Part shown: piece after piece, positions 665 to 61,553 of the stretch
Layout: each line of letters begins with the position of its first letter
Position numbering within the stretch: the first letter of the stretch is position 1
Origin: Microbotryum violaceum
Taxonomy: Eukaryota
Direction: 5' to 3'
Length of the DNA stretch: 64,000 nt
NCBI GenBank assembly: GCA_001244265.2
Contig: CDLV01000015.1
Location: forward strand, 868,001-932,000
The notes under the pieces: generated by a model
Databases searched by the model: none
What the model was told of the DNA's origin: nothing
Seen by the model: only the letters and a program-made list of their open reading frames with translations
Made by a program: the position numbers and the translations under genes

Positions 665-1224
665 CTCGTTCGCCAGCGCGTGCTCGCCTGAAAAGGTTGA
701 CAGGGATTCTTCAAAACGTTTCAGGAGTAAAGCATACATCATAGCCATGACTGGGCGACGAGATCCCGGAGGGAGTGGTGGTAATAATACCACATTCCAC
801 GGTCGCGTTCATTTCTTAAGCCCGCGAAATCTGCTTTTTTTTCCGGTTTAGTGGAGTTTTAGGCCATCTTAGAAATGAACGCCCCGCGAGCGCGCGGCCG
901 CGTTTAGCCACTCTGAAACGCCCCACCACCCACCCCCAACCCCCATTTGTACTCCCCAGCCTTGACATGTCGTTCGGAAAACCCGAGGTCAACTTATCCG
1001 GCCCCTTCTGCGCACTGCCCGCTCCGGACTGGGATTTAGCAGTGCATGGACGATGTGGAGCGGTGCTCCAACCGGCTCATCGCTCGACGCGCATCCCGAA
1101 CGAGTTGCCACCACTTCCTCCCGAAGCTCGTCACCCCGTCATGGCCATGATGGACTCGTCGCTTCTGAAACGCGTCGAGCAGACCCTGGCCGCCTTCTTG
1201 GACGAGCACGAGCTCTCGAGCGCC
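665..1224. repeat. Diverged inverted duplication of the kinase gene's first exon (arms ~665-784 and ~1105-1224)
   Basis: Minus-strand LPPLPPGSRRPVMAMMYALLLKRFEESL matches plus-strand LPPLPPEARHPVMAMMDSSLLKRVEQTL, and the DNA aligns. Confidence 0.85.
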
Positions 1225-3270
1225 GTCCTCTCCAAGAATGTGGAGCTGCTGAAGCAGACGCCAGCCGCGCTCCTGTGTACCCGCGGACCTACGTGCACCG
1301 CTATCATCCACGACCTTCGGATCCGAGTGCTCGAGCCACTCCTCCAATTCCTCCTGAACCAACTGGAGCTAAAAAGCAACCGGGGCGTCCCCAAGTCCGC
1401 ACTATCGTCTCCAGTTTCGCCCTCAGGACCCGTCCCAGCCGGATGGAGTCACGTTGGCCTTGATGAAGGATCGTCCTGGAACGTGCGTCGCTCTAATGGT
1501 TATCCACTTTGAGGAGGATGACAATTTCCTCTCCTTTGGCCCTCAAATCAACCTGTTCGCGCGAAAAGGCGAGTGCAGGTATCACCTTCACCACGATCGC
1601 CCGATTCCTCTCCAGAACGGCGGCAGAAGTCATGGAGCGCAAGCCATCTTGAACAAGGTCTAACCTCTGAAACTGAGCTTATACTGGTGCCCACTCCACT
1701 GATGACCTCGTACTTTGACTTCTTGTTCAGCTGGCGTTGCTGATGGAATCGGCGGTCGAGCGCCACCCCGAGACCGGCGAGGTCATCGTTCCTGTACGAT
1801 TCGGCATGATCCTCAGCACTCAACTGGGCATCTTTGCCGAGGCCAGTGCGTACCCGTCTCGTGTTTTCGTTCTCGCCCGCGCACAGAGCTTATGTGATTT
1901 GCGCTTTCCCAGTTGTGAAACCGCAGAACCCCAACGACTTTGGGCTCATTTACTCGCCGCTGTTTCACACAATAGGCGCGATACACTATCTCGATAGGGA
2001 GACCTCCTTCACGCTCACACGTGGATCTGTAGCACTTATGTTTCTTGCGTCGATGATCGATCACCTCGCTAAAATCCCTGAGCCTCTTTTCGAGGTCGTA
2101 CAAAGGCTTTTCGGTCAAGCCGACCCAAGTAACGCCAAGAGATGGACGTTCCAGCGGAAGCCGAGGAGACGCATGCTCAAAACAGGATGGACCCCACCAT
2201 CGAGCGTGGAAGTCTTCTCTGTAGACGACTATCGTTTTGAAGCCAAACTGAGTCTCGCAGCCTTGCCAGTACGTCCGCGCATTACGACTCTTCTTAAGAT
2301 TGGAACCGCCCTTGATGGCCATGTTCTTCCCATGTCGTTCAGCCTCGAATCTCCATCAGCAATGGCAGGATGCCACAAACGCGGGGTGGATACGAAGCCG
2401 TCACTTTCGAAGTCGTCGAGACTGGCCCAGCTCAAGACAACAGTTCAAAGAAGCACAAATCCGAATCGACGAAGCACCAACCGTGTCAGCGCCTGTGCAC
2501 CTTGCCCCCAGCCTTGGGAAGGGTCCCTGTCGGACTTGGTCGATGTAGAACCACAGTCACTTCCGCATTTAGTGCTCCCCCAGTTCATTGCAGAGGGTGG
2601 CTTTGCTGTTGTACGTGCGGGTTTGTTGATCGGTAGATCGTCTGTGCCGGACTTGTCCATGGACGAATATCTCTCGTCTTCGATGGACGAACAGCAACAC
2701 AGTGACTCGGACGCCGACACCGAAATGCATACTGCGGAAGCCGATCGACTTGGTTCATCGACCTGGATTCCCCGCACGTCCATTCCGACGGATCAAGCGG
2801 TGGTATTCAAGTCTTTCTGGGATCTTCCGAGTGCCGTGCACGAAGCCTTGTTCTATGAACACGTCTTTCCGCTACTGCCCAGCGAGGCCCGCGCTTTACT
2901 CCCGACCTATCATGGTGCCTATCGAGATCCTAAAGGGACCGATCTGGGAATCATTTTGGGATACGGAGGCCGGCCGATCCACAAGAAAGAGGTGGACGAG
3001 GTCCTCAAGAAGAAAGTGGCGTGAGTCTGGTTGCGCGGATGTCCTGGTCTCCTCTCGCCGTGGGCTTTGCAGCTGACGTTGTCAACGTCTCGCGCGTGAT
3101 ACAGCGACGCATTCAGAGTCTTCGACAAATGCGGCGTCGAGCACATGGATCGAGAACTGCGCAATGTCCTTGTACGCAACGACGGATCGTTGTGCATCAT
3201 CGACTGGAACCTCGCGAGACTCAATTTTGATCGTCGCTTCCTCGAGTATGGGACAGAGTTCAGGTGGTGA
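967..3270 (+). CDS. Multi-exon atypical protein kinase-like protein (C-terminal kinase-like fold, uncharacterised N-terminal domain)
   Basis: ORFs 967-1512, 1454-1663, 1737-1997 and 1834-3024 can be joined by GT..AG introns. The last exon (~3105-3270) reads GVEHMDRELRNVLVRNDGSLCIIDWNLAR (HxDxxxxN catalytic loop plus a DW metal-binding motif). Upstream FIAEGGFAVV, VVFK and HEALFY match kinase subdomains I-III. Confidence 0.7.
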
Positions 3271-4134
3271 GGTGATGCTGAGGAGGGTGGGGTCCCAGTG
3301 CGAGAGGTGTAAAATTGAATGTACGTCATTCGATGGTCCGCGTCACTGCGTAGGGGGTCGAAATTGATCCAGCTTCCACCAAATCGGGACCGACCGAGTC
3401 GGGTCTTCCGCCGGGTGGTAGACCGGACCGAGCCATGCGCTCCGACGACCTTGTCGACAGATTCGGCGGAAGCATTTACCAGCACTTAAAAAAGTTTGCA
3501 AGGGGCACGGGAGATCGACCAGCCTCTTCTTTCTCTGCTGTCAACCGTGCCGCCCGCGTTCGAGCATACAGAGGCTGAAACCGAAATTTCTCATCGTTCC
3601 GTAACCATGTGGTCCAACCCCGGGCTCCACATCGTCTCGGGATCCTCCACTCGCCAGTTCTCAAGATTACCGACCGCCTCAACCTGGACGATCGTGCTCG
3701 TCGCTATCCTGCCAATCCGATGGCACTCCTGATGCTGGGCCGGAGTCTGAGCCATCGCTTCGAGGTCGACCGCCTGAACAGCACCACTGGGAACACCTTG
3801 ATCAAAGCGACCATCTCGCATCGCCCTCGCTCGCTATGCCCTCGGAGGCGCAGATCTCTTCGGAACACAGTGACCTAACTTCCGACACCCATTCGGCGTA
3901 CAACTACGAAAAACAAGGTGAGCAGCCCCGCAAACGCTTTTATTGGCTTTGCTATTGTCCTCGTATTGACACTGCAGTACACAGAGCAGAAGGGGCTCGC
4001 TTCCGTGATCCGCCGTCCCCAAAACCCTGCGACGTGGCTGAGGCCCCAGACGAAGTTAATGGACACGGCCACTTTACCTCGGGGCACAAGATCACGCCGG
4101 TGCTCTGCAGGAATCCACCTCCTCGCCAACCACT

Positions 4135-4406
4135 GTGACACCAGCTCAAGCCTACAAGCAAAAGTGGGAGGGATCTGGCGGGCTCTGTGTTGTCGGGATT
4201 CTCGAGCCAGAATGCCCATCGAAGAGTTGTTGTTACAGTCGGAGGCTTCATTATAGCGTCTCTTCGGGGAAATCTCCAACTGTAGCGGCATTTTGTTTTC
4301 TTTGCCCTTCTTCAAGATTGCCAGTCCCTTCTCGCTCGAGGATCCCAACAACAAATATCCCGCCAAATCCCTCGCACTTTCGCTTGTAGACTTGAGTTGG
4401 TGTTAC
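4135..4406. repeat. Diverged fold-back (hairpin) repeat
   Basis: 4135-4216 (TPAQAYKQKWEGSGGLCVVGILE) is the reverse complement of 4327-4406 (TPTQVYKRKCEGFGGIFVVGILE). An inner pair, tacagtcggaggcttc / gaaatctccaactgta, closes the hairpin. Confidence 0.8.
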
Positions 4407-4876: not shown

Positions 4877-5700
4877 CAGCTTGGATTCAGTGCGCACCTT
4901 GCATCAGCTTGTATTCAGTTGCCCCCCTCCCTTCATCAGCTTGTATTCAGTCGGCCCCTCGCGTTTACTTCACCCAAGTCATGGTTGTAATCTCAATTTG
5001 TTTTACTACGTCTCCGTCGGCGCCCCAGGCCCCCCATCTACGTTCGAGAGTGACGATAAGTCAAGTCTGCTCAGATGTTTACTACCTCTTCACTACCTCT
5101 TTGCCACCTCTTCACTTATTTTTTGGTAGAAAAACGTGTCGATTCGCGACTCATGTATTTAAATACGCTGTATTCGACTGTGTTGCACAGACGGCCCTCC
5201 GTGTTGGGAACGTGCCAGCATACTGTTGGGTCTGCCACACCTGCTTGTAGTATCGGCGTCCCGATCGAAAGTCATGTACGTGCATACTATGTACCATTCG
5301 TTACAGTCCTTTTAAATGTCTGAGCGGTTTATTTGGGTTTTGATATATAGCAAGTGCATGGGCTTGCTTGACATTTCTTCTACAGAGCGTGTCTCGGATT
5401 TCGAACCACAGAAAGAAAACAAGCCTCGCCGGGATGGCCAAACTAATGACCTTGCAAAGAGGGGAACCGGCACCAGCACAATGACCAACGCGTGCTGTGG
5501 TACTCGGAATCCCATCGGAGTCATTTCGGACATAGCAGGCCGGGTTCAGGAGTCATTTCGGACAAAGCGGGCCCCGTCAGGAGTCATTTCAGCTGTAGCG
5601 GGGTCGCGTCACTTTAGCGGGGTCTGTGGTACTCGGGATTCCGTCGGAAGCAGCGGTTGTAGCGGAGTCGTTTCGGTCGAATCAGGGTCGGGAGTCGTGT
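4877..5700. repeat. Short periodic repeat clusters, probably a transposon relic
   Basis: cagcttg(t/g)attcagt occurs three times at 4877-4951. ggagtcatttc occurs three times at ~5517, 5549 and 5580, with degenerate copies at 5664 and 5691. tgtggtactcgg occurs twice. Confidence 0.6.
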
Positions 5701-6274
5701 TAATTAAGTGCCCTGCTATTCGCGCGATTAACCTGATTCCATTTTAATTTCCACTAGTCCGGGCAGGATCAAAACGCCGGTTTCGGCAGATTTCTCAGCG
5801 ATTAAGCGGTCCCAGATAAACTCAGTACTTCGGTGACTCGAGGATTGGCTGTCAGCGACAAATCATGTGGCGGGATTTGAATGGAAGACCGGGCCGGATG
5901 CGCGGATGAAGGGATGAAGGGGAATGAAAGGAGTGCAGCGGTACGAATGGTCGGAACGTTTGAGGGGAGTTTGCTTCTTGTTTTTAACGAGACCACTTCT
6001 AGGATCCAATACAGCATCTTAGCTGGCTCTGCGTGTTTCCAGTCTCGTCTCTCCTCTCCAGTCTCCAGTCTCCAGTCTCAGCGTTTCGTTCTCGTACTCG
6101 GTTTCGTTTCTCGGTTTGGGCCCCTTTCTCTTCCCTGTCTCTCGGCCGTTCCGGTCGGTCTCTTGTCTCTCGCCTCCCTCGTCTTCATTCTCGGTTCCAT
6201 CGTTTTCCCTTGTCATTACATATCATCTTTGATTGACCGCTTTGCTATACCATAGTGCAATGAGGAGCCAATCT

Positions 6275-7364
6275 GTCAACGACCGCTTTGGGTGCGGAAC
6301 ATAGGCATATCTCGACCGGGTTGGCTGCGGCGTCAAGGACGAGGTCCAATCTTCGATGATGGCGCGTCTGACGGCGATTCCCGTTGCGTTCAACTCGACT
6401 GAGGCAGAGTTCCAGAAGAGCTTTAGCTTATTCCGACAACACGTCGTGGAGCCGTCCCTTCAGATTGTGGCCCAAAACTAAAGGTTTGGGGGCCGCCTCA
6501 TTGCTAGGCAGCTTGAGGCTTCGCCAGCGCGCCGGTACAATCAGGAAGGCGACCTCGACTTTTAGGAACCTGAGGCCCGAGGCACGATGTACGTAAGCAC
6601 GAGAGCCGAAGAAGATAGTAAAGATAGTTGGAGAAGAGAGAGAAGCGCTAAGGGCGCGCGCACTTGGAAGGCTAGAGGCGCGCGCGCGGCTAATATCAAC
6701 AACTAGATACTAAACTATTCTAAGTGGGATGAAACAGCAATACCCTATTGACATCGACCTCGTCTTGCTGCATTTTTCGGACAGTGCCGTCTCCGAGGCA
6801 GGCAAAAGGCAAACCGTCTCAGTCGTCTGCGTCGAGTGTAAGCCAGATGATGTCTTGCAAGGCTACACCCTGCCGCAAGAAGTCAAGGATCCGGGGCTCT
6901 GCCTCGGGGATGACGTCCGGTCGAGATCAACATAGACACGCCTGAGCAGGCCCTAGAACACAGCGAAGCCATCCTCGCCAAGGTTTGCCGAAGTGGTTCC
7001 ATCCACTCACACTCGACGCAGACGACTGAGATGGTTCGTTTTCTGCCTGCCTGGAAGACGGCATCGCCCGAAGTATGCACCAAGACAAGGTCGAGGTCGC
7101 CTTCCTGATTGTCTCGGCGTGTTGGCGAAACCTTGAGCTGTTTAAACGGACCGGTGGCCGAACCTTTGGCCTGGATCACAATTTGAAGGGACGACTCCAC
7201 GACGTATTGTAGTAATGAGCTGAAGCACCTCTGGAACTCTGCCTCATTCGAGTTGAATGCGACGGGAACGTGGTCAAACGAGCCATCATCGAAGATTGGA
7301 CCTCGTCCTTGACGCCAACCCGGTCGAGGTAGGCTTCTGTTCCGCGCCCAAAGCGGTCGATGAC
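6275..7364. repeat. Fold-back duplication of a decayed gene fragment (arms ~6275-6841, interrupted by a solo LTR, and ~7007-7364)
   Basis: Both arms encode DRFG..T.AYLDRVG..VKDEVQSSMMARL and DLVL.H.S..AV..AG...T.SVVCVEC in opposite orientations. Confidence 0.85.
6560..6753 (-). mobile_element. Solo LTR related to the Copia LTR at 35581
   Basis: 5-bp TSD TCGAC at 6555-6559 and 6754-6758; ends ...TGACA. Shares acgagagccga, gatagtaaaga, ctaatatcaacaactag and aagtgggatgaaacagcaata with 35581-35783. Confidence 0.9.
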
Positions 7365-8263
7365 GGATTGAGTTCTCATCGCACGCGTCGGCCGTTGTGC
7401 TGGTGCCGGTTCCCCTCTTTGCAAGGTCTTGAGCTTGGCTGTCCCGGCGAGGCCTGTTTTCGTCTTGCGCATCACGACCTGCTTTCCCGCGCTATCGACG
7501 CGTTCCGTGAATCTCTCAGAGCTGAGAACGAGACGACCATCGTAGATGACATAGTGCGTAAAGAGATGTGGAGATTGGGAGGGACGAGGGACGAGGGAGG
7601 TGCAAGGAAAGCGACGCGTGAGCCGTGAGCGCTTGATCGGCGTCAGCAGGGCAGGGTCATCGCGTGCGCGCGTCGAATGTGATCTTCGCAGGGTTTTGGC
7701 CACGCTGCGACCTCCTGTGTGCGAAGTCGACGTCAACGCGCCGGTGGGCAGAAAGGAGAGAGTGTGATTGGCATGAGTGGGATCCCATGGGGATAGCGGT
7801 TCCGAGCATCTTAGTGGGGCGGCGCCGAGGGCTTTTTACATGCTATTTCAGTTCGCCATACCACGAGCACATCGCAGCAACGCAATATCGCCCAAAAGTT
7901 GAAGCGGGCAGTTCATGGCTTGGAGGAAGACCTTCCGCATTTTGCACCTACGAACTTCTCTCCTCACACCTGGCTCATGATAACATGTTCAGTAAGGTTG
8001 TCAGAATACGATAATTGAACAGGAAGCTTCTGATCCCATCAAAGAGAAGAAGCGAGCAAGGAAGCTCGAGCGATGAACTGCGCATCATTCCTCACCGAAT
8101 GCGCCGACAACCAAGGAACAATCGGCCCTACATCATGATTCGCATACACCGCAAAGTCGCATTACAGATACACTCAGCCTCTTCGGACCACCTCCACAAC
8201 AATCAACCACCCGCCCACAAGCTGAACGACGCTCCCCCTCCCACATCTCAGCGTGCTCCCGCC

Positions 8264-10396
8264 TCAAGCTTGCCAAATGAAATGCGTCGTCAACTCGACT
8301 CCATCTGATGAGGATCCGACAAAGCTCAAATCAAATCAGAAACTCGAACCAAGCAAGTTCAAACCGTATGTGGGACCACTTACACGAACTAGGCGAGACC
8401 TGCACGACGTCGCCTCGGCGCAATTCGACGTTGGGGATCTCTTGCGGTGTCAGGCCCTGTACGGACCGAAGGAACGCCGAGACATCAGCACCTGTCGCTA
8501 AATGGTCAGTCTAGTGGGCTCTCGTATGTACCTGGAGATAAGCCATGACGCAACGAATCACCGAGGCATGGCCAATAAATAGGATGTCGGCCGGCTCGCG
8601 CTCAAGTTCGAGGATCACCGGTTCCAACCTAGCACAAGGGCAAGCATTAGCATCGTCAATATCCACCCAACAAGTGGAAAAAAAGTCCACTCACCTAACG
8701 CTCAGATCGTGGTATGACTCGGCCCTAGGATATCGATGACTATACGGTGCGAGCTGATGCGCCTTGAACTCATCGGGGAACATCTTCTTAATCTCGTCCG
8801 GCTCCATCCCGTCAATCACGCCGGGGTTCAACTCGTACATCTGTTGCCTCTCGATGACCTTGTACCCTATCTCTTGCAAAGGACGACACGTCGAAAGGCA
8901 GCGGTTGCGCGCGGAGGTCCAGATCGTGAGACGACGTTCGGTCGCGCGCTCACCGGCTTTGACGCGTTCTTGCAACAGTTCGGCACGTTTCGAGACAATA
9001 AAGCTGCGTAGATTTTCGGCGTATTCGATGCCTTGCGGGGAGAGATCGGCGTCGGCTTTGTAAGAGTGCTCGATCAGGGAATGACCCGACTGCGCAAAGC
9101 GAGTTAAGAATGCGACGTCAGCAGCGAGTACCTCGACTCGGATCTAATACAATGGCATACCCTGGCAAACCAGATGGTCCTCTTCTTGTGATGCACGTTC
9201 ATCAGGTAAAACACGATCCGACTTTGCAGGTAGCCGCGCACGTTGTTGACGACGAGCCTTTCGCCGACGTTGTAGATCTTGACGTAGGCGCCAATCTCCG
9301 GTCGAAGGGTCTCGTAGTGACGTTCATGTTGGGCAATACGGGACAGATAATCGGCGACGGCTTTCTCTTGATCCCACCCGGCGTACTGAGGAGAGGGAGC
9401 ATCGGATCAGACGAAGTTGATGACGATCAGAGTTTGAGACATCAGCACGTGAGGACGCACGTCAGGGGAGCTGATCTTGACTGATCGAATGTTGGACTCT
9501 ACGATATCGGCCCTATCGCAGATGTTTTCTGCGAGGTGGTGTACAGTGGTCAGGTCAGCCTAGGTGTGCGCTACAACGGTTGCCGCTCGCTAACTTTATG
9601 AGGCTGGGTGACCAGTGCTCACCGATAAAGATGACGCTGACGCCCAATTTTTCAAACTTTTGTCTTATGGCTATCCTCATCGATCGCTTGCCATTCTGTG
9701 AGGCTCGAAGCAAAGCCCCGTGAAGAATCGAGTTAGCAAAACATTGATTTTTCCACTGCACCTCGCCGAGCACTCACGTTCGCATCGTAGATGGCGACCT
9801 GACCATTGCGTTGGTTGAAGAAAGAAATGATCTCTGTTTCTAGACTGTCCTTGACGCGTGAACGTAGTTGTTCCGTTTCGGCACAGCGCCCTTCGGTGTA
9901 GAAATAGTCTTTGGGCAGTTTGGCCGACGGTCCGAGCACTCGTCTTCGGTGGTCACCGAGGGAGAAGACTGTGGGGAGCGCGGGAGTCAGTCGGACTGAC
10001 ATGCTGTTAATAGTGTGATAGTGGTGCTCACCTTCAATCTTTACTCCGAGCCATCGTAGGTAGCGTTCGACGGACCGCGAGACGTGTCTGGGGAGACGGA
10101 TGAGATGTTCGGGGGGGAGGGCGTCAGCGCATGCGACGACCACGTGATGGTCTGAAATGGAAACTGACGTCTTTCCTCGGGCTAGAAGAAGAAGGCCAAA
10201 AAGACAAGACAGGAGCGGGTAGGTCAGCAAGAAGAAAGGGCGAGGGAAGCCTTGTCGGTCATCACTCCCCCACTTTGGGACAAGAGTGGGGGCGAGCTGA
10301 TCAAGGTGACCTACCAGGCAGTCCTACGAATGCGAGTAGGATCTGGCCTGCATGGTAGAGTCGACCACTGTCGGTCGTGTACAAGGGTGCGGCCAT
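8264..10396 (-). CDS. 6-phosphofructo-2-kinase/fructose-2,6-bisphosphatase family protein (YLR345W-like)
   Basis: Spliced exons read MAAPLYTTDSGRLYHAGQILLAFVGLP, ARGKT, HVSRSVERYLRWLGVK, QVAIYDAN, LQSRIVFYLMNVH, ELNPGVID and YPRAESYHDLSVRLEPVILELER. Confidence 0.9.
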
Positions 10397-14349: not shown

Positions 14350-14502
14350 CGTCGGGCTGATTGAGATCCTCAGGATCGGTGGTGCTTTGAGAGCAAAATA
14401 GAGAGTTCACTTGGTCTGGATGCGGTGTGAGTGTGGGTGTGGGGCTCGAAGACGAAACCAGGACCGAGCGCGGCGGACCGGCCGTAGATGACGCGTGGCA
14501 CT

Positions 14503-48662: not shown

Positions 48663-49016
48663 GTTTCCCCCGAGGAGTCACAGGCAGAGAGAGAGACAGA
48701 GAGAGCGACAAGTCACCACTTGGAGCTGCGGTGGCTGCGAAGGGCGTCGCCGGAGAGAGCGGAGGAGCAGAGAGGAGCGCGACGCGGCATGCTACCAGCG
48801 CAGAAGGATGATAGGTGAGATTGAGTGGGCATGGAATCCATCGGAAAGATGATCGGGCCAGTTCGTAGCCGACGTTATGATACAAAAAAAAAAAAGAGAC
48901 CTGCGACGCATTCCCCTGTCTCTTCCTCCGCTCCGGCCGTATGTTCCCCAGCAACGTCCAACTTGTTCTAATCGTTACTGTTCTGTCTTGCTTCCCAATC
49001 AAAAGTACGTGGTGGT

Positions 49017-49651
49017 TTAGAAGCCGGGCGGTACGATCTGGCCTGGTTGCGCCGGTTGGGCGAATTGGGTTTGCGTTTGCGCTTGCGGTGTCGCGGCCTG
49101 TCGAGGAAGTATACAAACATGGGTGTTAAATCATAGAATAGATCGTATTCGATGAGCAGGGTTCTCTCGCCGGACAGAGCAGACGTCTGCCGATGGGTGG
49201 GCGAATCTCGATCTCGATCGTGCTCGGATTCGCGCATAGTAAACAGAAAACTGACCTGCTGCCCCATGTACTGCAACTCTTGCTGCACCAAACCCGCCTC
49301 CCCCTCGATGGCCAACATTAAAGGCAAACCGACCAAGATCGCACTCGTGCACGCGATCCAGGCCGCACTGCCTCCCAAAGTACCGAGACTCCAGGCCCAG
49401 GAATGGAGAGTGGCGGCGGAGTTGTGCAGTGAGGCTCGAGTGGAGGGGGGGATCATGTCCTTCAGGGCGTAGAAACGACTCGAGAACGATTCGGTGGAGG
49501 CGTCAAACGCTGTGAGAGAGAGGTCGTCGTCGTCGTCGTCCGAGTCGAGCCCGGCGCCGGGTCGTTGAGCGGCCGAGCGCGAGTCGTCCGACGCGTTCGA
49601 GGACGCATCCGACCACGCGTCTTCGTTGGTCACATCCTGGATCTGGACCAT
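49017..49651 (-). CDS. TOM22: Mitochondrial import receptor subunit Tom22
   Basis: Acidic N-terminus, ESFSSRFYALKDMIPP and TM segment AWIACTSAILVGLPLMLAIEGE; one intron. Confidence 0.92.
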
Positions 49652-49997
49652 GGTTTGCGGGATGGGAGGTGGGGTGGTGGTTGGGGTGTGGGTGTGGGTG
49701 TGGGTGTGGGAGGAACGGAGTCGAGAGTGAGTTGCGCTGCTGCTGAGCGCTGAGCGCCTGAGATCGCACGCGCGTCGAACCGGCTTCTCCAAATTGAGCT
49801 CGACAGTAAGCTCGACATTAGCTCGGCTGGTTAGCTTCTAATGGACGGCAGAGCCTGGCTCAGAGCTCGGACCTCTCGCACTTGCTTGAGCTTGAACGCG
49901 GCAAACTCGACTTGGTTCTCCCTCCTCCCCTCTCTCCCCTCACCCCTGTCCCCCTCTTCCCTTCTTCCACGCCCCCTTTTCCTTCGCGTGGTCCGAT

Positions 49998-52755: not shown

Positions 52756-53129
52756 GGTTTTTGGGGAGTTTTTTTTGTAGAGGTGATGATCATGATGATG
52801 AAATATTTGATGACGTTTCAGTGAGATGGGTGATCTGAGCCAAGATCGACGCCCCCCAAGTCGGCGGGAATGAGTATTAGGCCTGGAGCTAATCATGATC
52901 GTAATAACCAAAGTGGATCGATTGCGGGCGGCGATGACCCGAGCTCGCGCGTGTTTGGTCCTCGCTTGCTCCCCTCCCCTCCCCACACGCACACGTTCAA
53001 CCCCGGCTTGGCTCACACCACACACGACGGGGGTGTATCATCCCCCATCCTCTCGACGCACCACACTTCCTTGATCTTTCGCGCCAGGTTAAAACACCCC
53101 TCACCTCGTTGGACCCGTCGTGCACCTCT

Positions 53130-56100
53130 ATGAGTAGTGATGCGACCACGATGGACTCGGTCGTACCTTCCACGGCAACTCTGAACGAGAACGAGAACGA
53201 AACTAGTTCACTCGATTCGCAACTCGCTTCACTTCGAGCTGAATTAAGTCAAGGTCAACTCGTTGCGGAAGCTACGATACATGATCTTGATAACGCTTTA
53301 CAACTTGCGCGATTGGAGGTGGAGCGGTTCAAGGTTGAGGTGCACGAGGGAGGGAAGAGGGAGGAGCAGTTGCAGCAGGAGGTGCACCAGTTACGCAAGG
53401 CGATGGAGGAGGGGAGAAAGAGGGAGGGGGAGGACGAGCAGAGGCAGGAAGAGAGGAGGAAGCAAGCCGAACAGGGGGAGAGAGTCAAAAGGGAGTTGTT
53501 GGAGGCCGTCGAGAGGGAGGCGGCGGAGAAGCAAGAGCTGGCCGGTCAGTCTCGCCGCGACGGCATTCTTGCTGTGCAGTAGCTGATTGTCTTTTCGGCT
53601 ATCGTTTGGCAGAGTCTCTCGCTTCCCTTCGGGCCTTGCACACTTCGTTGCAAGCCTCGCATTCCGAACTCGAAGCGGCTTTACTCGAGCAAACGACCTC
53701 GGCCCGTTCCGCGCTGCTCAAGACCCAATCCCTACAATCGAACGTCACCTCGCTCGAATCCGACAAGACGTTCCTTTCCGAAGAACTCGATCGCGTTCGA
53801 GTCGAATACGCCACCACACGACGCACAACGCACGTGCAGATCACCCGCTTGAACGACCAACTCGCGACCCTGCAAGAGGACGAAGCCGCGTTGAGGAACG
53901 CGCATACGACCTTGCAGGCCTCCCATGTGACTTTGCAGGAACGCTATACCCAATTGACCGTCGAGTTGAGTCAGGTCAAGCAGGAGCGAGAGGCGAATGA
54001 GGGTTCGTTCGTCCTCGAGATGGCCGGGATGAAGCGCTTGGTCGAGATGATGGATCGACGCGAGGCCGAGAGAAAAAAGAGGATCGAACTTGTCGAGGCA
54101 TCGCTTCTGGAGGAACGTGCACGCTTGGCAGAGGAAGAGGCCGCCAGAGTGGAAGAGTTGGAGAGGGAACGCGAGAGGTGTGACGAGCTCGAGGCGAAGG
54201 TCGTCGAGATGCGCGCCGCGTTGGAGAGGGGGATCGTCACTTCCGCCGGCGGTGCGGAAGGCGACAGCTTTGGATCGCCCGGTCGGTTCGCGCTCAGTCC
54301 TTCGGCGCAGATGGCCGTCTCGAACCAGAAGGGTGGACGCAGCTACGCGCAGATCTACGCCGAGTACATCCGCATGGAGGAGCAGCTCGTCGCGGAACGG
54401 ACCGAGAACAAGCGGTTGCAAGAGTGCTTGGCGCAGGTGTTGATGGACATTGAAGAAAGGGTGCGTCGTTTCGATGCTTCCTGAATAATCACAGGAAACT
54501 GACTCTTGAAGCACGTCGGAACGAAACGCGTAGGCCCCGCTCATGAAGGAACAACGCATTGAATACGAGCGCATCTCCGAGGAGGCGACCCAACTCGCCG
54601 CTCAACTCGCGCTCGTCTCGTCCGAACGGGACCAGAGCGATCGACGCGCGACGTCGACTCGTCTTGACCTCGAACACGCTAAACGGGACAACACGATGCT
54701 CCAGGCCCAACTGCGCGACTTGGGACGGCAGGTGCGCACGCTCGCTCGACAGAACGCTCTCGTCACTGGTGTCGTCTCGGGTGGTTCGGCTGACGACGAC
54801 GACGAGGAAGAGAACGAGATCGTCAAACGCGCCGAAGTCGACCTCTCCACCGATGCGATCGTCGCCGCTCACCTCGTCACGTTCAAGAGCATCAACGAGT
54901 TGCAGGTACAGAACCAAAAGTTGTTGCGCATCACGAGGGAGATGGGCTCGCAGATGGAACGCCTCGACGACGATGCGCTCGGCCGCCGCAAGTGGAAGGA
55001 GAACAAGGCCATCGAGGAGGCGCACGAACTCGTTTTGGGTCTCAAGGAAGAGATCGAGAACCAGCAGCGCCAAATCGAAGGCTTTGCGAGGGAGCGCGAC
55101 ATGTTCCGTCGGATGCTCGCGAATCAGACCAATGGCCATGGCGCGATCGATGGAGGAGCGACGAACGGTGCTGCTGCCGGTGGCGACTCGGATCGATTGT
55201 TGGCGGACGTGCAGGCCAACTTTGACGCGTACAAGAACGAGATCGCAATCGACTCGCAGCGACTGCGCGACGACCTTAAGGACGCGCAACAAGCGGCTCA
55301 GACGACGCGCACCGAGCTGGCCAAGTCGAGGGCGCAGGCCGAGTACACCGCCGAGCGACTACGCCTCTTGACCGAGAACTACGGCACGCAGACGAATGAG
55401 TTGGCGCAAGCTTCGAAGCGCGCTTTGGACCTACAGTCGACGTTGGCAAGGCAGGAGGCCGTCGCGCACAACTTGTCCGAGGAGTTGATCGAGCTGCGCG
55501 GTCAGGTGGATCAGTTGCGCCACGAGAATACGACCCTCAAGACTGAGCGCGAGGTCACGTCGAGCGTGCAGGCCCGCCTCGTCGAGGAGAACTCGGCGCT
55601 TTCGAAAGAACGTGCTCACCTCGCCGAGTTGATGCGTAACCTCCAGTCGATGCAGAACGAGGTCGAACGATCCGGCAACGATGCTCGCCGTCGTCTCGAG
55701 AATCAAGTCACAAGACTCGAATCGCAGGCTGGCGACCTCAAGACCCGCCTCGACACCGAAACCGAGGCGAGTCGTCAGCTCACGTTGAGGAAAGACTTCG
55801 AGTCCAAGCAGTACCAGGAACGGTTGGACAAGCTGCAGGGCGAGTATGCGACGACGCGCGAGAAGCTCGTCGAGGCCGAGACGTCGAGGACCCACCTCGA
55901 CTTGCGCGTGCAGGATCTTCAGTTGCAGGTCACCGCTCGGGAGGAGAAGCTTGCCATTTACGAAGGTCGATCGGCCGCCGCTCGAGCGGGAGGAGAAGCT
56001 TCTTCACTCAGTGCAACCGAGCAGCTCGAGATCATGCTCGCGGATGTGCGCATCGAGCTCGAGGAGACCAAGGCCAAGCTCGAACGTTCTGTCGTCCACG

Positions 56101-59100
56101 CGCGAGAATTGCAAAATATCGCCGACGCTCAAGGTGGTGCTTTGGCCGAATTGCAGGCGACCTACGACGCGTACAAGATCTCCGTCGATGCTCGGATCGC
56201 CGAGAAGGACGGCGAGATCGCCAGTCTGCGTGAGCGTCTGCACTCGCTGACGACCGATCTCACCGACCAATCGAGGCAGAACTCGGAGTTGCACGCCCAG
56301 ATTGAGGCCGAGCGCGTTGCTTTCGAGAAGGAGCGCAAGGTGCTCGAGGACTCCCTCGCGGCCGTGCGAGCGCACGAGCAGGACGCACACAACGCCAGTT
56401 TCCAAGCGCAGAACGATGTGCGACAACAGGCGCAGCGAGCGAAGGACGCCCACGAAAAGTACGAACGCGAACTTGTCGCCCATGCCGAGGACGTCAAGCA
56501 GTTGAGCGAGGTCAAGGGCAAGCTCGAGCACGCGCGACGGCAGACGAGGGAAGCGCAGACCGCGAACGAGGTTTCCAAGACGAACTTGGCTGCTTCCGAG
56601 GAGAGTTGGGCTCGACAGAAGGTGGCATTGGATGGCGAGTTGGCCGATGTCAAGAAGAGGTGTGTTTGGTCGCTGTGCTATTTCGTTATTCTTCGTCGAT
56701 CATATCTGATAACCCCTGTCCTTGATCTGTAAACAGATGCGAGGACCTCACGAGTCAGAATGCTCTTCTCCATCAACATCTTGAATCGACAACTGCGCAG
56801 GCCGCTTCGTTGCAAAAGTCGACGTTGACGGGTGCACCCGGTGCCGATTCAGCGGCCGTCGAAGGACTCGATGCTGCCGTCTCGACCGCATCCCCTTCGG
56901 ACGAGCTATTCGGCGTCATCACGTTCCTGCGCCGCGAGAAGGAGATCGTCGACTTCCAACTCGATCTCAGCAAGCAAGAAGCGACGCGCCTGCGCACCCA
57001 GCTTGACTTCACGACTCGCAACCTCGAAGAAGTGCGCCAAGCTTTGGCTGAGGAACGTCAAACCGGTCCGGTCGCATCGGCTTCGACAACGCAACAAGCC
57101 GAGCTAATGGAGCGCATCCACCAGTCCGAACTGCTGCGCGAGAGTAACCACACCTTGCGCGAGGAGCACCGCGCGATGATGCGCACCAACAAGACGCTCG
57201 AGAAGCGCAACGGCGAGATGCGCGCCGAGCTCGAGCCGCTCAAGTCGCACGTCGTGGAATTGCAAGCCGAGATCGAGGCCAAACAGCACACGATCCGATT
57301 GCTCGAGGAGGACAACGAGCGGTGGAAGGTGCGCAACCAAACCATCTTGGCCAAGTACGAACGCATCGACCCCGAGGAACTGTCGACACTCAAGACCGAG
57401 GTTGACCAACTCAAGGCTGAACTCGACCCGCTCAAGCAAAGGCTGCAGGAGCTCGAACAGGAGAAGGCGACCGTGCAGACCGACGCCGAGGAGAAAGCGC
57501 GCTTGATCGAGGTGTACCGCGAGAGCTCGAACCGGACTTCGGAACGGTTCAAGGCGCTTCAGCTCCAAGCTCGCACGACTCGCTCGGAGAAGATGGCGCT
57601 CGAGGCCGAACTCGCCGCTTTGAAGGCGAAGATCGAGTCGGGCGAGTTGATCACCGCCGCATCGAACGCCGCTGCCGCCGCTGCCGCCTCGACCGCTTCC
57701 GCCGCTTCCGCCGAGACGCAGAACCAACTTTCAGCACTTCAAGTCGAAAAGGCGTCGCTCGAATCGCGTATTCAACAACAGACCGAGACGATTGCGACAC
57801 TCGAGGCACGCATCGCGACCCACGAGGCTCAACAGACTGACGTCAGCAAACCCGCCGACGATCGATTGAGTGCGCTCGAGGCGGAGAAGAAGGCGTTGGA
57901 GGACCGGGTGGCTGTACGTCCTCATTAGCGTCCGCTTCTATTCCGTGGCATGCCTGATTTATTGTTTTTCCGACTTGTTACAACAGCACTATCAAAAGAG
58001 GGAGGAGCCCATCTTCAATGACAACAAGCGCCTCAAGGGCGAGAACAGGCAGTACGAGGCGCAGCTCGCTGCTCTGCAGGCGCGCATCGACGAACACGTC
58101 AAAGTCAAGGAGACTTTCGAAGCCAACAACCAGGAAGCGATCACGAAGGCTGTCGAGGCGCGCGTCGCGGCTGCTGGCACACAACCTGGCGATCCTGCTG
58201 CCGTCGAGGAGCTCGTCCGAACCAGGGTCTCCGAGGTCGAGGCTCGACTTGCTGCGGAGCGCGAATCGGCCATTGCGGCCGCCGTCGAGACGACAACGGC
58301 CGAGCTGAACAAGACACTCGATTCTCTTCGCACCGAGCTCGTTGCTGCCCGAGAGGAGGCGACTGTCGCCGCTTCCGTTGCTGGAACGACTGTGACCGCC
58401 TCAGACGATGCCGATGCGAAGAAACAATTCGAAGAGCAACTCGCCAAGGTCCAGAGCGACTTTGAAGCTTCCAAAACGGCGATGCAGGCCGAGTTTGAGC
58501 AACTCAAGACCAAGCTCGCCGAAGACGCCAAGACGCGCGAGCAGGAGATCACGAAACGACTTTCCGCTGAACTTGCACATGCCCAAGCCGAAGCGAAAGC
58601 CGCAACTGAAGCCGCAGCCGCAGCCGCCGCTGCAGCCACCTCAGTTGCACCTGCTTCTGCACCGGAGGTCGATGTCGATGCCCTGGTCGCCGCCAAGCTC
58701 AAGGACCTTGAAGCGGGTCGACTCGCTTCGCAACAGCAAGCGATCGAAGCCGCTGTGACGGAAGCGCTCGCTAAGCAAGCCACCGAGAACGAGGCACGGG
58801 TTGCGACGCAAATGCAGGAGACGCGCAACAACATGCAGGAAGAGTTCACCAAAAAGGGCACACTAATGACGGCGCTCAAGAAGGCGGTTGAAACCAAGCT
58901 CAAGGCCTCCGACGTCAAGCTCAAGGCAGCGCACGAACTTCTCCAAGCGAACGGAATCCCTCTGCCCGATGCCACTGCCACTCCCGCTGCAGCAACACCT
59001 GCCCTTTCATCGCCTGCACCTGCGCCCACACCTGCAGCTGCACCTTCGACACCTACGCTTACTCTCAAGGCAACATCATCAGCTCGAGGCGGCGCTGCCG

Positions 59101-59387
59101 CAGGACGTGGAGCGATTCGAGGAGGCCGAGGCAGAGGACGAGGTGCAGCCGCTGCGGGCGCATCGCCGAGTCGATCGGGAGCTGCCGCTACTTCGGAGAC
59201 TCCTGCCAATTTCTCGATTCGTGGGATTACAGGTGCGGCTGCGCCGCCAGCTACACCACCGTCTTCGACACCAGGCGGTGTCTTGGGACGATTGATGGGC
59301 GGCGCGCTCGGTGGGAAACGAGGGAGGGACGATGATGCTTCGGCGGATGGGAAACGACAGAAGCAAGGCGAAGGAGGGAGCGGTTGA
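53130..59387 (+). CDS. Nuclear basket nucleoporin Mlp1/TPR (Nup211-like)
   Basis: Long coiled coil with LVTFKSINELQVQNQKLLRITRE, AHEKYERELVAHA, QNALLHQHLE, FLRREKEI and LLEEDNERWKVRNQTILAKYERIDPEE. Confidence 0.92.
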
Positions 59388-60149
59388 TTTGTGACTCGCG
59401 GCTTTGATCAAACTTAAGACTCGGGACTGTGTAATACCACCCTCTATCCGCAATTTTGCCATGTAGAGAGATTTATTCTGGCCGGGGTGGCCCCTCTTTG
59501 TGATCTGGACCGATGTTTTCAGAGGACACTGCCCTTTTACTTTTTGAGGTCAATAATTTGGCTCGGGAAGAAAGAGGATTGGAGCTGGGAATTGTTCGAG
59601 TGGACGCACGCCCCACTACACCGTCGATACAGCGTGTGGGGCACCACACCACCCAGGGAGGTGCCCAGGTAGTGCGGCTGCTTAATATGACTCAGCTTTC
59701 TGAAAGGGCCAAAGTGAGCTACTTGTTCATTGAGGCTATTCAGGCGCGATTCTCCCCCCGCAGAAGCCTTGGTGCAAAGCGCATGTTTCAGCACGCGAAC
59801 CTGACGCGAGACATCATGCGAACCTGGCACATGCGAAGTTTGCGAAGTTTGCGAACCTGCAACCGAGTCTCGGAGGCAGGAGCAGCGACCGACGATGGCG
59901 CCGTGGACGTCAAGAAAGATGGAAAGCTGGGTGTCAAAGGGTGGAGAGTGAGGATAGTCACTACACGAGACTTGCAGAGGAATGAAGCGGGACGACTGAG
60001 GGAGCTGCTCTTATGATCTACCAAAGGAGGAGTGTCGAGTTCATTTAAAGGGAGCAACTTCATTAGAGCGGCCGCGCCTTCGTTCCCCTGGCCTCTGGCG
60101 CCGCAACGGGCGCTTTGCATTACAGTGCCGACTCGGGTACGGAAGGAAT

Positions 60150-61553
60150 GCGAGACGCACACAAACCAGACTTGAAGTTGAGTTGGCCACCATGGTCGCC
60201 TTGTCCCCGGCGGCTTCACGAGCATGTGGAAAAGGCCGATCCGCAGCGTGATGGGCAGGTCGAGTCGATCAAGGTGCCGGAGAATCACGTCTGGGGAGCC
60301 GAGGACGACACGACACCTTTGGTGTAAGCGATCCTGGAAAAGGGGTGAGGCAATTTCTTCTTCTTCCCGCTCATCTTCTTATCCATGTCGTGAGCAAGTA
60401 GCTGATCTCGCCGTACTGCACTGCAGATTTCAACCTCGAACCGAGTTCTCGTCCTGTGCGCGAGGGGGGGGGGGGGGGGGGGGGGGGGGGGTCAAATGCG
60501 ATAGCTCGGGGCTCGCCCGGTCAGGTGTGGTGTGCTCCAAGGACCACTGCGCCGACGTGGTCGACCTCTTCCCACACGCGAACACGCCGAAGACGGTCGA
60601 GACGTGGAAGATGGACGATGCAACGAGAAAAGCGTGGGAGGCACAACACAAACGCCGGATCCACGACGATCGACTTATGGAAGACATTCACATCGTCATG
60701 GAGCTCAAGGTGAATGAGTTGGACCAAGCCCTGGCCGACGCACAGCTCTATCGGCGGTATTATCGGATGATTTCGACAAAAGGGATTCAGGAATGGGTCT
60801 ATGGCTTGACGCTTTGCAGCTCGATGTTCCGTGTTCAAGTTCACAAACCAAGCGGAATCATCAGGACCGAGGCGATTGACTGCTTCTGTCGAACAGTCAA
60901 TCGATTCGGTTTTGACGATTCCGCTAGGCGTGTGAGCTTGAACAGGGAACATCGAGCCGCAAAGCGTCGAGCCATAGATCCCGTTCGTGGAGGACATTCG
61001 ATAGTACCGCCGACAGAGCTATGGGTCGGCTAGGGCTTGGTCAACTTACTCACCTTGAGCTCCTTGACGCATGACGATGTAGATGTCCTCCATAAGTTGA
61101 TCGTCGTGGATCCGGCCTTTCCACGATTTTCCCGTTGCATCGTCCATCTTCCACGCCTCGACCTTCTTCGGCGTGTACGCGTGTGGGAAGAGGTCGACCG
61201 CATCGGTGCAGTGGTCCTTGGAGGCCACCTGAACGGGCGAGGTCCGAATTATCGCATTTGACCCCCCGCACACGACGAGAACTCGGTTCGAAGTTGAAGC
61301 CTGCAGTGCAGTACGGCGAGATCAGCCAGTTGCTCACGACATGGATAAGAAGATGAGCGGGAAGAAGAAGAAATTGCCTCACCTTTTCCAGGATCGCTTG
61401 CACCAGACTTGGAGTTGTCAAGGCAGACGTGATCCTCCAGCACCTTGATCGACTCGACCCGCTGCCGATCTTCTCCATATGCCTGGGCAGCGCCAGCGAG
61501 AATGGAGGTTGTTGGCCAACAAGTCAGCGACAGGTCTGATTTGTGTGCGTCTC
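60150..61553. repeat. Long diverged palindrome of a FunK1-N-terminus-like pseudogene, centre ~60887
   Basis: The arms meet at gattgactg-cttctgtcgaa-cagtcaatc. Both encode ESIKV..EDHV, KDHC.D.VDLFPHA.TPK.VE.WKMDDAT and IHDD.LMEDI.IVM..LKV. Confidence 0.93.

Follow-up and report, generated by a model that had tools for sequence, protein, structure and literature searches.

Six inverted duplications in a 64-kb window of the Microbotryum violaceum genome

Gene content and structure of FB1 to FB4

A stretch of 64,000 nucleotides from Microbotryum violaceum (contig CDLV01000015.1, positions 868,001 to 932,000; hereafter the window) contains six inverted duplications, which we term FB1 to FB6. They lie where an initial annotation had placed them, with boundaries that agree within about 20 nt (blastn E 1e-12 to 0), and none of ten second-order Markov shuffles of the window yields any inverted or direct match at E<1e-3. 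The description of these structures as unrelated also holds. When all 586 open reading frames of at least 60 aa were compared with the window by tblastn, matches stayed inside single fold-backs and none joined one fold-back to another, and no termini or sequence common to different fold-backs were found among the six. Their proposed age range, from near-identical to old, is apparent in the arm K2P distances, which span 0.004 to 0.37 (0.004 for FB4; 0.14-0.20 for FB2, FB3, FB5 and FB6; 0.32 for FB1). The structures, their mutual independence and their relative ages are established by these comparisons.

The first fold-back involves gene G1 (967-3267, forward strand), which encodes a restriction-endonuclease-like domain and an atypical (ELK-type) kinase, and whose exons match protein P0012 (626 aa) at 94-99%. 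The kinase part has a kinase fold with weak Pfam matches to APH, Kdo and RIO. In structural comparisons, the nuclease part fits best to the nuclease domains of BpuSI and HsdR (Z 7.3-8.5). Sisakova et al. 2008 reportedly dealt with the HsdR subunit of EcoR124I. In the Atlas cluster nearest to G1 (0.93), 11% of the members have SPOK2_N. This architecture resembles that of Podospora Spok proteins, where the parts stand in the same order, and the description of Spok by Vogan et al. (2019, PMC6660238) includes a discussion of the SPOK nuclease domain that cites Sisakova et al. 2008. G1 can also be likened to Crinkler-type C-terminal modules, which the initial annotation had named and whose repertoire, as presented in PMC12957317, includes the combination of REase and kinase. 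Unlike a Crinkler, however, G1 has no Pfam Crinkler family match, nor has any other part of the window in our Pfam searches, and the likeness concerns the C-terminal domain combination. Spok differs from G1 in that its homologues are described from ascomycetes, and in the catalytic ExK, which reads FEED/FExD in the G1 family alignment. To our knowledge, no drive phenotype is known for G1.

The right arm of FB1 (1105-1229, forward) lies within G1 exon 1, and the left arm (660-784, reverse) is a diverged inverted copy of the piece encoding G1 aa 47-88. The arms match over 125 nt at 71% (blastn E 1e-16), and the left arm retains 57% aa identity to P0012 aa 47-88 and is recovered by a G1-family HMM (E 7.5e-9), such that the gene identity of FB1 as a nuclease-like and kinase gene is solid. 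A seventh inverted pair, previously unlisted, belongs with FB1. It joins 496-631 (reverse), the outer piece of the old left copy, to 3997-4135 (forward), about 730 nt beyond the G1 stop (72%, E 6e-12), and the outer homology of FB1 ends at 496/4135. Together, the two pairs point to an old inverted copy that measured at least 3 kb before 2.77 kb was lost from it. A decayed second G1-family fragment at 3588-3809 (forward, HMM E 0.003) is in direct orientation, and the same place is matched by several G1-family members. FB2 (4135-4406), which begins exactly where the outer homology of FB1 ends, is a small hairpin with arms at 4135-4212 and 4329-4406 and a 116-nt loop. Its arms are 78 nt long and 85% identical (K2P 0.17), and the whole element matches itself with E 2e-23.

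FB3 is larger than first described and spans 5415-7461, because the right arm (7006-7461, reverse) reaches 7461, where it pairs with 5415-5495 (89%). The left arm (5415-6842, forward) consists of three pieces, 5415-5495, 6255-6562 and 6750-6842, separated by a 759-nt insert (5496-6254) and by a solo-LTR-like insert. The principal pairs are 6255-6562/7087-7384 (80.5%, E 3e-70) and 6750-6842/7006-7098 (83%), and the loop at 6843-7005 forms the directly adjoining centre. The LTR-like insert (6560-6753) has a 5-bp duplication, TCGAC, on both sides, and the right arm retains its empty site. It is 74-76% identical to the LTRs (35618-35774 and 40061-40216, 98% identical to each other) of the window's Copia-type retrotransposon (35586-40216, reverse; RVT_2, rve, gag_pre-integrs), which represents its source family. 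The D..ExK-like motif that had been reported is present in the FB3 arms, with the right arm translating as ...EGDLDLVLVH..(20)..VVCVECE and the left as DIDLVLL...VVCVECK; no significant homologue of the arm sequence was found in our searches.

The arms of FB4 (23579-23809, forward, and 26863-27093, reverse) are identical at 230 of 231 positions, the sole mismatch being G/T at 23798. They enclose an intact FunK1 (Pkinase_fungal) gene at 24511-26831 (forward), which is 99% identical to P0001 and has two exons that match Pfam PF17667 (25.2 and 36.2 bits), so the identity of the flanked gene is solid. The right arm begins in the 3' flank, about 30 nt past the stop codon.

Compact palindromes FB5 and FB6

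FB5 (41754-42944) is a palindrome centred at about 42446 with a 27-nt spacer. Its arms pair as 41754-42083/42624-42944 and 42314-42445/42447-42579 (self-matches E 3e-77 and 2e-65), and we recognised no coding sequence in it. A solo LTR (TGTTG...TAACA) at 42092-42280 lies in the left arm between copies of a 5-bp target duplication, GTACA. This LTR is present in about 40-50 copies per genome, with a depth of 246 versus ~6 in DNA run X9 and 1315 versus 24.5 in X11, and read contigs break at its edges, 42092 and 42280. FB5 is otherwise covered by X11 record 2 (42327-49669) and X9 record 21 (42253-43594).

FB6 (60152-61553; self-match E 0) is a palindrome with an 11-nt centre. The left arm (60152-60888, forward) comprises an upstream region and the 5' part of a FunK1-like gene, which reads towards the centre, and the right arm (60889-61553, reverse) is a mirror copy that likewise reads towards the centre. 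FunK1 homology stops at the centre, leaving two convergent copies of a truncated N-terminal part. This identity, a truncated FunK1 5' part, is solid: the left arm is recognised by Pfam (E 7.9e-4), by a purpose-built FunK1 HMM (E 6.2e-6) and by hhalign (E 4.7e-5, prob 68%), and its FunK1-like part is matched by P0010. A poly-G tract (60465-60492, forward), at which contigs break, is present in the left arm only, and the centre is bridged by an X11 contig (record 6, 60788-61171). The right arm resembles the M. saponariae protein P0011 more than it does the FB6 left arm, and shares with P0011 two indel states and a premature stop, whereas the left arm retains the FunK1 frame. These shared states suggest that the duplication predates the M. 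saponariae species split, and FB6 thus appears to be older than a speciation event.

One 110-nt block (60349-60460) is about 93-98% identical between the FB6 arms as judged by eye, much above the rest. Its conservation could reflect gene conversion or selection.

Copy number, decay and genomic context

Copy number, contig bridging and presence in strains or species were assessed for FB5 and FB6. In two independent DNA runs the arms of both are at the depth of their single-copy flanks, and independent read contigs bridge both centres, which sets these two apart from assembly artefacts and from a multicopy transposon family. A mobile lifestyle, as had been suggested for these genes, is contradicted for FB5 and FB6 by this single-copy depth and by the absence of target-site duplications, which were found at the outer ends of none of the six fold-backs.

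Arms differ by 13-29% and carry indels and LTR insertions; the solo LTRs with 5-bp target-site duplications occupy only one arm each of FB3 and FB5, and were thus inserted after duplication. Transitions and transversions between arms number 192 and 126. CpG observed/expected is about 1, and with no CpG depletion there is no RIP-like signature in the arms. Differences between the FB6 arms are distributed 15:14:17 over codon positions, revealing no coding constraint.

The statement that no fold-back occurs in housekeeping genes agrees with our data, in that all 11 inverted HSPs (E<1e-3) fall outside genes with Pfam-recognised conserved domains. However, such genes occupy no more than roughly a quarter of the window, and six independent events would all miss them with a probability of about 0.17. 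Within a single window, confinement to accessory DNA carries no statistical weight, and purifying selection would yield the same pattern anyway. Kinase or nuclease-like sequence had been assigned to four fold-backs; the assignment is robust for FB1, FB4 and FB6, but is at motif level only for FB3. Overall, the earlier interpretation is partly supported.

Origin of the fold-backs

We favor the view, with a probability of roughly 0.6, that FB1 to FB6 arose through six or seven inverted duplications, each independent, local and limited to one locus, which affected dispensable, fast-evolving gene-family DNA and are decaying neutrally. The tiny centres of FB6 and FB5 require that the arms arose by some form of fold-back or template switch, which sustains that part of the earlier proposal of fold-back break repair; the repair route itself is something we infer, and it could be fold-back priming, template switching or another route. 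The far end would then have been rejoined with loss of intervening sequence. The direct product may be visible in FB6 and FB5, probably in FB3 and perhaps in FB2, as a promoter-proximal gene piece present twice, with both copies converging on a tiny centre and the remaining gene lost. FB1 would be an older inverted whole-gene copy that shed its 2.77 kb afterwards, and FB4 might be either a very young relic of the same kind or a short inverted repeat held identical by gene conversion. Thereafter, the arms would decay neutrally through substitutions, indels and LTR insertions. We propose that events are seen on FunK1 and Spok/Crinkler-like nuclease-kinase genes because dispensable families with fast turnover tolerate the damage. 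Fold-backs presumably persist because inverted repeats, unlike direct ones, cannot loop out by recombination, a survivorship argument; indeed, self-comparison of the window finds local inverted duplications at six loci versus no local direct duplications apart from LTRs, an asymmetry expected if recombination removes direct repeats. In yeast and human, DNA breaks are known to give rise to inverted duplications of the fold-back type (PMC7467729, PMC3907307, PMC11724301). As described in those reports, the inverted copy there also abuts the original with a short spacer, sequence beyond the break is lost, and a single locus is affected with no target-site duplication. The reported cases are, however, either very short templated insertions, of 5-34 bp, or rearrangements of chromosome ends on a very large scale, whereas the fold-backs described here measure 0.1-1.4 kb, have an interstitial position and are fixed in the genome of a natural organism.

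Ordinary paralogue pairs, which segmental duplication plus an inversion happened to leave head-to-head or tail-to-tail without any particular relation to hairpins, would be an unlikely explanation for the set. FB1 together with 496-631/3997-4135 is best read as a head-to-head whole-gene copy with a 320-nt spacer, FB4 could be what remains of one, the fragment at 3588-3809 is in direct orientation, and both gene families are multi-copy. Nonetheless, duplication followed by independent inversion does not produce the 27- and 11-nt centres of FB5 and FB6 or a gene truncated exactly at the centre, and the lack of local direct duplications also speaks against it. Transposable elements with long terminal inverted repeats, whether foldback/MITE-like or, for FB4, carrying FunK1 as cargo, are quite improbable as the general cause. 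TIR elements account for 12% of transposable-element sequence in the sister species, a fish Crinkler-like gene flanked and moved by hAT terminal inverted repeats has been described, FB2 is a compact 272-bp hairpin, and in FB4 a complete gene is framed by near-perfect inverted ends of 231 nt. A non-autonomous element that had captured FunK1 could have such ends as its terminal repeats, although no target-site duplication was seen at FB4. Long inverted arms and short loops are common to foldback/MITE transposons and the structures described here, but the single-copy depth of FB5 and FB6 contrasts with a depth 40-50 times higher for the genuine repeat within FB5, pieces of host genes make up the arms of FB1 and FB6, and the six have neither family resemblance nor, by Pfam scan, a transposase domain in or beside them. 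Some long-read assemblies are known to contain artefactual palindromes that stem from chimeric palindromic reads. This origin is exceedingly unlikely given the divergence between arms, which is unlike an artefact, and for FB5 and FB6 it is ruled out by bridging contigs from independent runs and studies.

It is possible, though doubtful, that the fold-backs are maintained hairpin-RNA genes, whose read-through dsRNA would be cut by Dicer into siRNAs with a trans-silencing effect on the FunK1 and nuclease-kinase families. In that case they would be counterparts of the long inverted-repeat siRNA loci known from the stripe-rust fungus Puccinia striiformis, also in Pucciniomycotina, where fifteen such loci (pst-sir) are phased and the predicted or PARE-supported targets reported include FunK1 kinases (Mueth et al. 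2015, PMC4578785; Mueth and Hulbert 2022, 10.1101/2022.06.16.496483); FunK1 is thus a small RNA target there and arm content here. In Phytophthora, a further precedent, 21-nt small RNAs arise mainly from inverted repeats and Crinkler genes, and the sister species M. lychnidis-dioicae expresses an RdRP, two Argonautes and a Dicer. Exact complementary runs of at least 21 nt number four in FB6 (longest 54), four in FB3 and two in FB5, with one of 219 in FB4, RNA folding z-scores range from -20 to -67, and FB6 combines its apparent age with the unusually conserved 110-nt block. Conversely, exact runs of that length are missing from FB1 and FB2, FB6 has no nucleotide similarity to the window's only intact FunK1 gene and hence no trans target in view, and the CpG ratio argues against long-term methylation of the arms. 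The even spread over codon positions in FB6, the arm divergence, the indels and the LTR insertions look like neutral decay. Moreover, the pst-sir loci, as presented in those reports, are defined by small RNAs on both arms and at their best are tail-to-tail gene pairs, whereas the fold-backs here are described from DNA sequence and the clearest are strongly diverged, convergent 5' fragments with almost no spacer.

Under local inverted duplication followed by neutral decay, the fold-backs would still form long hairpins if transcribed, which might have consequences for RNA silencing. Six fold-backs per 64 kb may far exceed what is average for the genome, and such an excess would need a specific cause. 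The similar K2P values of four of them hint at a common episode or cause that a purely sporadic model does not predict.

Fold-back duplications in the window

By its sequence, the window is nuclear fungal DNA from the anther-smut genus Microbotryum. An ORF at 25071-26090 for a FunK1 kinase (Pkinase_fungal, PF17667) has 99% identity to protein P0001 of M. silenes-dioicae and 87% to a protein of M. lychnidis-dioicae, and the ORF in one of the fold-back duplications, FB6, shows 100% identity across the covered part to P0010, a second M. silenes-dioicae protein, which is encoded on the same contig. The gene map, built from Pfam scans of 148 ORFs of about 120 amino acids or more, includes 6-phosphofructo-2-kinase (8694-10323, minus strand), anthranilate phosphoribosyltransferase (11191-12310, plus), F-actin capping alpha (12932-14406, minus), cullin (27969-30627, plus), Tom22 (48971-49837, minus), the Miro GTPase (49896 to about 52500, plus) and the nucleoporin Mlp1/TPR (53339-59384, plus), together with an apparently complete Copia retrotransposon (35586-40216, minus) whose 157-nt LTRs are 98% identical. 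Among ORFs of this size, the rest of the window has no conserved-domain genes by Pfam other than one FunK1 kinase.

All six inverted duplications described in the initial annotation are present at the positions given there, with BLAST E-values from 6e-12 to 0; by comparison, second-order Markov shuffles of the window gave no inverted or direct match at E<1e-3 (0/10). These are FB1 (660-784/1105-1229, 71% identity, spacer 320 nt), FB2 (4135-4212/4329-4406, 85%, spacer 116 nt), FB3 (6255-6562/7087-7384 at 80.5% and 6750-6842/7006-7098 at 83%, spacer 163 nt), FB4 (23579-23809/26863-27093, 230/231 positions identical, spacer 3053 nt), and the palindromes FB5 (41754-42944, spacer 27 nt) and FB6 (60152-61553, spacer 11 nt). 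The set is slightly extended by an outer piece of FB3 that had been overlooked (5415-5495/7381-7461, 89%) and by a seventh inverted pair that belongs with FB1 (496-631/3997-4135, 72%). The inverted copies abut across a short spacer in FB6, FB5, FB2 and FB3, and do not in FB1 and FB4. All inverted matches in the window are local, lying less than 4.4 kb apart, and apart from LTRs the window has no local direct duplications.

The events had been described as unrelated, and comparison at the protein level indeed finds no fold-back resembling another. They had also been described as absent from housekeeping genes. This is true in the window, where every inverted match falls outside conserved genes, but those genes make up only about a quarter of the sequence, and chance alone would let six events avoid them about one time in six. 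Selection would also purge fold-backs that strike conserved genes.

Logan contigs from four public sequencing runs were placed on 41700-61600 at 90% likeness, and two DNA runs, which belong to other studies and carry other organism labels, reproduce both palindromes. The centre of FB5 is crossed by a 7390-nt contig of run X11 (42327-49669) and by a 1342-nt contig of run X9 (42253-43594) with zero differences, and that of FB6 by a 384-nt X11 contig (60788-61171). FB5 and FB6 are thus not artefacts. Depth over the arms of these two palindromes is 24.5-41.7 in X11, compared with 24.5-31.5 in the flanks, and 6.8-8.6 in X9, compared with about 6. Inspection of the flanks revealed no target-site duplication at the outer ends of any of the six fold-backs. 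Because their arms are single-copy in depth and lack such duplications, FB5 and FB6 are not members of a Foldback, MITE or TIR transposon family, and are instead unique local duplications that were later hit by retrotransposon insertions.

Genes and insertions at the fold-backs

FB1 and FB2 lie around G1, a putative nuclease-plus-kinase gene at 967-3267 (plus strand). The right arm of FB1 corresponds to amino acids 47-88 in exon 1 of G1, and the left arm is an inverted copy that is 57% identical and matches the G1-family HMM with an E-value of 7.5e-9. This left copy runs straight into 631-496, and 730 nt separate the G1 stop codon from the partner of that piece. FB1 is therefore what remains of an old copy in head-to-head orientation, at least 3 kb long, from which 2.77 kb was later lost. 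The start of the FB2 hairpin (272 bp) at 4135 coincides exactly with the end of the FB1 outer homology. A later insertion of FB2 was considered and rejected, as comparison of 1-495 with the region to the right of 4135 gave no homology above that of shuffles. An additional decayed G1-like fragment is found at 3588-3809.

The G1 family is small: a search of 1.84 billion proteins gave 16 representatives at E<=0.001 (members include P0012-P0024). G1 has a C-terminal kinase domain of the eukaryotic-like (Kdo) type: the family alignment has the kinase motifs HGD..RN and IDWN, Pfam gives weak matches to Kdo in 6/12 members and to APH and RIO1 in 4/12 each, and catalytic loops of kinases in the PDB are matched weakly but uniformly. 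The AlphaFold model of G1 (mean pLDDT 52.9) retrieves many protein kinases with Foldseek (probability 1.0, E 6e-4); kinases alone appear among the matches listed for the whole model, since the kinase domain fills the list. The nuclease-like match comes solely from the VIA wide structure search, in which residues ~90-324 of this low-pLDDT model align with the BpuSI nuclease domain at a middling score (Z 8.5, rmsd 3.7, 150 residues aligned). Other nuclease domains are matched by the same residues at similarly middling scores, namely HsdR of EcoR124I (Z 7.5), another HsdR (Z 7.3) and an REase-like protein (Z 6.5). In the protein-language Atlas, the cluster nearest to residues 120-340 has SPOK2_N among 11% of its members (score 0.93, 191 shared features). 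Two distant relatives of residues ~27-104 of the ORF at 1810-3021 (P0025 and P0026) have part of this middle region of G1 fused to ubiquitin and BAG domains.

The putative order of domains in G1, a nuclease followed by a Kdo-like kinase, is that of the Podospora Spok spore killers, a likeness of architecture. In the account of Vogan et al. (2019, PMC6660238), Spok killing is attributed to the nuclease domain and protection to the kinase domain. The Spok relatives described in the literature consulted are all from ascomycetes. Crinkler C-terminal combinations also include a nuclease with a kinase (PMC12957317), a layout like that proposed for G1.

FB6 is a full palindrome centred at 60888/60889, each arm of which comprises the upstream region and 5′ part of a FunK1-like gene pointing toward the centre. 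Homology of this fragment to FunK1 is supported by three tests: Pfam PF17667 (E 7.9e-4, 18.7 bits, under the gathering score), an HMM made from eight Microbotryum FunK1 proteins (E 6.2e-6 among 1365 ORFs) and hhalign (E 4.7e-5, probability 68%, 91 columns). All three alignments stop at the centre; the homology reaches ORF residue 235, or nucleotide 60886, with the centre at 60888. The gene ends there without remainder, and our FunK1 HMM finds no trace of the rest of the kinase domain in the flanks, which is the loss beyond the break that is expected of a fold-back. Microbotryum FunK1 proteins have a PD...AE stretch ahead of the kinase, and FB6 retains ADVVDLF...IVMELK at the matching position. 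Its arms differ at 13% of aligned sites, spread evenly over codon positions (15:14:17), which indicates neutral decay.

A direct repeat (59363-59450/62160-62247, 88 nt, 69%, E 1e-7) comprising the final Mlp1 codons and 3′ flank recurs on the far side of FB6, so that a 2.7-kb block holding FB6 lies between two copies of the Mlp1 end. Another direct repeat (21349-21386/62487-62524, 38 nt, 94.7% identity) is separated by 41 kb. The left arm of FB6 also carries a poly-G tract of 28 G (60465-60492) where the right arm has 6 G. A 27-nt tract occurs within the Copia element (37993-38019), run X11 has an 8-G insertion polymorphism at 52209, and short-read contigs end at long poly-G tracts.

FB4 differs in kind, with two near-identical 231-nt arms on either side of a FunK1 gene that is intact (24511-26831). 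About 30 nt separate the stop codon of this gene from the right arm, and about 700 nt separate the left arm from its start. PF17667 matches the gene with 25.2 bits on the ORF at 25071-26090 (cut-off 24.1) and with 36.2 bits on the ORF at 26090-26383, and its close homologues bear the same domain. In Pfam scans of 135 small ORFs around the fold-backs, the FB4 kinase exon was the sole match.

The FB3 arms translate to D..ExK-like sequence (DIDLVLL...VVCVECK on the left, EGDLDLVLVH...VVCVECE on the right), with the centre directly after. The FB3 ORF at 6886-7491 (minus strand) has no homologue among proteins of 111-354 amino acids, and its single-sequence AlphaFold model has a pLDDT of 38.3. Neither the G1 family (E 0.18) nor the FunK1 family (E 0.29) is significantly matched by hhalign, and the Atlas leads, Hjc and HSDR_N_2 nucleases, score only 0.82-0.84. 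FB5, a full palindrome centred near 42446, has stops in all frames of its arms and matches no family. Relaxed tblastn searches with the G1 and FunK1 families against FB2, FB3 and FB5 found nothing over control regions, with the fragment at 3588-3809 as the lone exception.

Both FB3 and FB5 carry insertions in their left arms. In FB5, a segment at 42092-42280 without a mirror partner is bounded by TGTTG...TAACA, with a 5-bp duplication, GTACA, at both sides. These LTR-type ends and the duplication identify it as a solo LTR. Its depth rises to 1315 in X11 and 246 in X9, a 40- to 50-fold jump, and contigs break there with varied continuations. The FB3 insert at 6560-6753 is LTR-like (74-76% to Copia LTRs) and lies between two copies of TCGAC; it opens with TT rather than TG, and the right arm retains the empty site. 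Copia-related solo LTRs such as this one are scattered in the window, and the high-copy solo LTR of FB5 is unrelated to the Copia element. A 759-nt segment in the FB3 left arm (5496-6254), with GTGC at each side and short tandem repeats at 5517-5688, represents a small element of an unknown kind, or else it corresponds to what a microhomology deletion removed from the right arm.

Age, origin and possible silencing function

Arm divergence, expressed as Kimura distance, ranges from 0.004 in FB4 through 0.14 in FB6, 0.17 in FB2 and 0.18 in both FB3 and FB5 to 0.32 in FB1 with its outer piece. RIP-like mutation does not account for the divergence of the arms, which differ by transitions and transversions in a ratio of 192:126, with only 40 transitions at CpG and an observed/expected CpG of about 1. 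The near-equal values for FB2, FB3, FB5 and FB6 (K2P 0.14-0.20) suggest that these four formed within a single period and not at a steady rate. For FB6, a protein of M. saponariae (P0011) is nearer to the right arm than the left arm is, and has the premature stop and two indel states of the right arm. The frame that aligns with FunK1 is retained in the left arm. The simplest reading of these sequences is that the duplication would be older than the split of the two species, a view based on one annotated protein and on a polarity argument.

In the best-supported account, the fold-backs arose independently of one another, by fold-back or template switching at breaks or stalled forks in dispensable genes of these families, and then decayed neutrally. 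The products would have been modified by point mutation, deletions and LTR insertions. This account explains the tiny centres, the gene cut exactly at the centre, the lack of target duplications and the single-copy status, as well as the lack of likeness between events and the deletions and LTR insertions that came later. That local duplications are more often inverted than direct also fits survivorship, as direct repeats would presumably be looped out by recombination. The account leaves the similar ages of four of the events unexplained. The proposal in the initial annotation that the arms could be dsRNA or siRNA sources that silence the family has precedents. In the stripe-rust fungus P. 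striiformis, as described in PMC4578785 and 10.1101/2022.06.16.496483, long inverted repeats over gene ends give rise to 20-22-nt siRNAs, some of them phased, with targets that include FunK1 kinases; the fold-backs here share the placement over gene ends. Inverted repeats and Crinkler genes are the main sources of 21-nt RNAs in Phytophthora, and the sister species M. lychnidis-dioicae expresses an RdRP, two Argonautes and one Dicer. The arms are predicted to fold as long RNA hairpins (z -20 to -67), and exact complementary runs of at least 21 nt occur in FB3, FB4, FB5 and FB6, and not in FB1 or FB2. Nonetheless, the sequence evolution of the arms looks neutral, and we consider maintenance for silencing unlikely.

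More specific versions of this idea are less probable still. Drosophila has hairpin-RNA genes that silence meiotic drivers, and a fungal counterpart could be imagined in which selfish nuclease-kinase genes (Spok/Crinkler-like, FunK1) have left truncated inverted copies, the palindromes, that act as family-suppressing hairpin RNAs. On this reading, the promoter and the 5′ part on the nuclease side would be all that the palindromes retain. In a bolder variant, the nuclease of the family would itself cut the breaks that seed the fold-backs. We regard this reading as improbable. Both variants would fit with FB3 and FB6 centres that lie just past the D..ExK motif, with an FB6 that appears old and with a genus that has RNAi. 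The interpretation in the initial annotation is supported in part. The fold-backs are most likely ordinary results of inverted-duplication repair in the DNA of fast-turnover gene families, if displayed with unusual clarity. Repair genetics has already described products of this kind, and their RNA-silencing side has been seen in rusts and oomycetes.

Should the pattern extend to the whole genome, Microbotryum would provide a natural dated series of fold-backs, from 0.4% to over 30% arm divergence, that would reveal the origin, persistence and decay of repair products in a wild eukaryotic genome. The fold-backs would then be tied to two fast-evolving families, with a nuclease-plus-kinase layout as in fungal spore killers. 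If it fails, they would be ordinary neutral relics of gene-poor DNA. The part worth pursuing is the link of the fold-backs to Spok-like nuclease-kinase genes in a basidiomycete, together with possible suppression of these genes by the hairpins. The fold-backs are ready candidates for endogenous hairpin-RNA loci, and the literature searched contained no small-RNA study of Microbotryum.

Two of the public runs bear on transcription. Run X16 was rejected as RNA, as it resembles low-depth DNA, with a depth of about 3 and one contig that crosses the intron at 56657-56735 unspliced. Run X17 is true RNA: its contigs show GT..AG joints in three genes, Miro, Mlp1 and that at 45163-46261. Its source is a relative about 5% diverged. 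FB5 and FB6 are nearly uncovered by it at 90% likeness, and the run is uninformative on their expression. The gene at 45163-46261 (plus strand) is an unannotated multi-intron gene without a Pfam hit; its spliced X17 contig has a depth of 317, compared with 42 for Miro and 32-50 for Mlp1, contig depth being a poor measure of expression.
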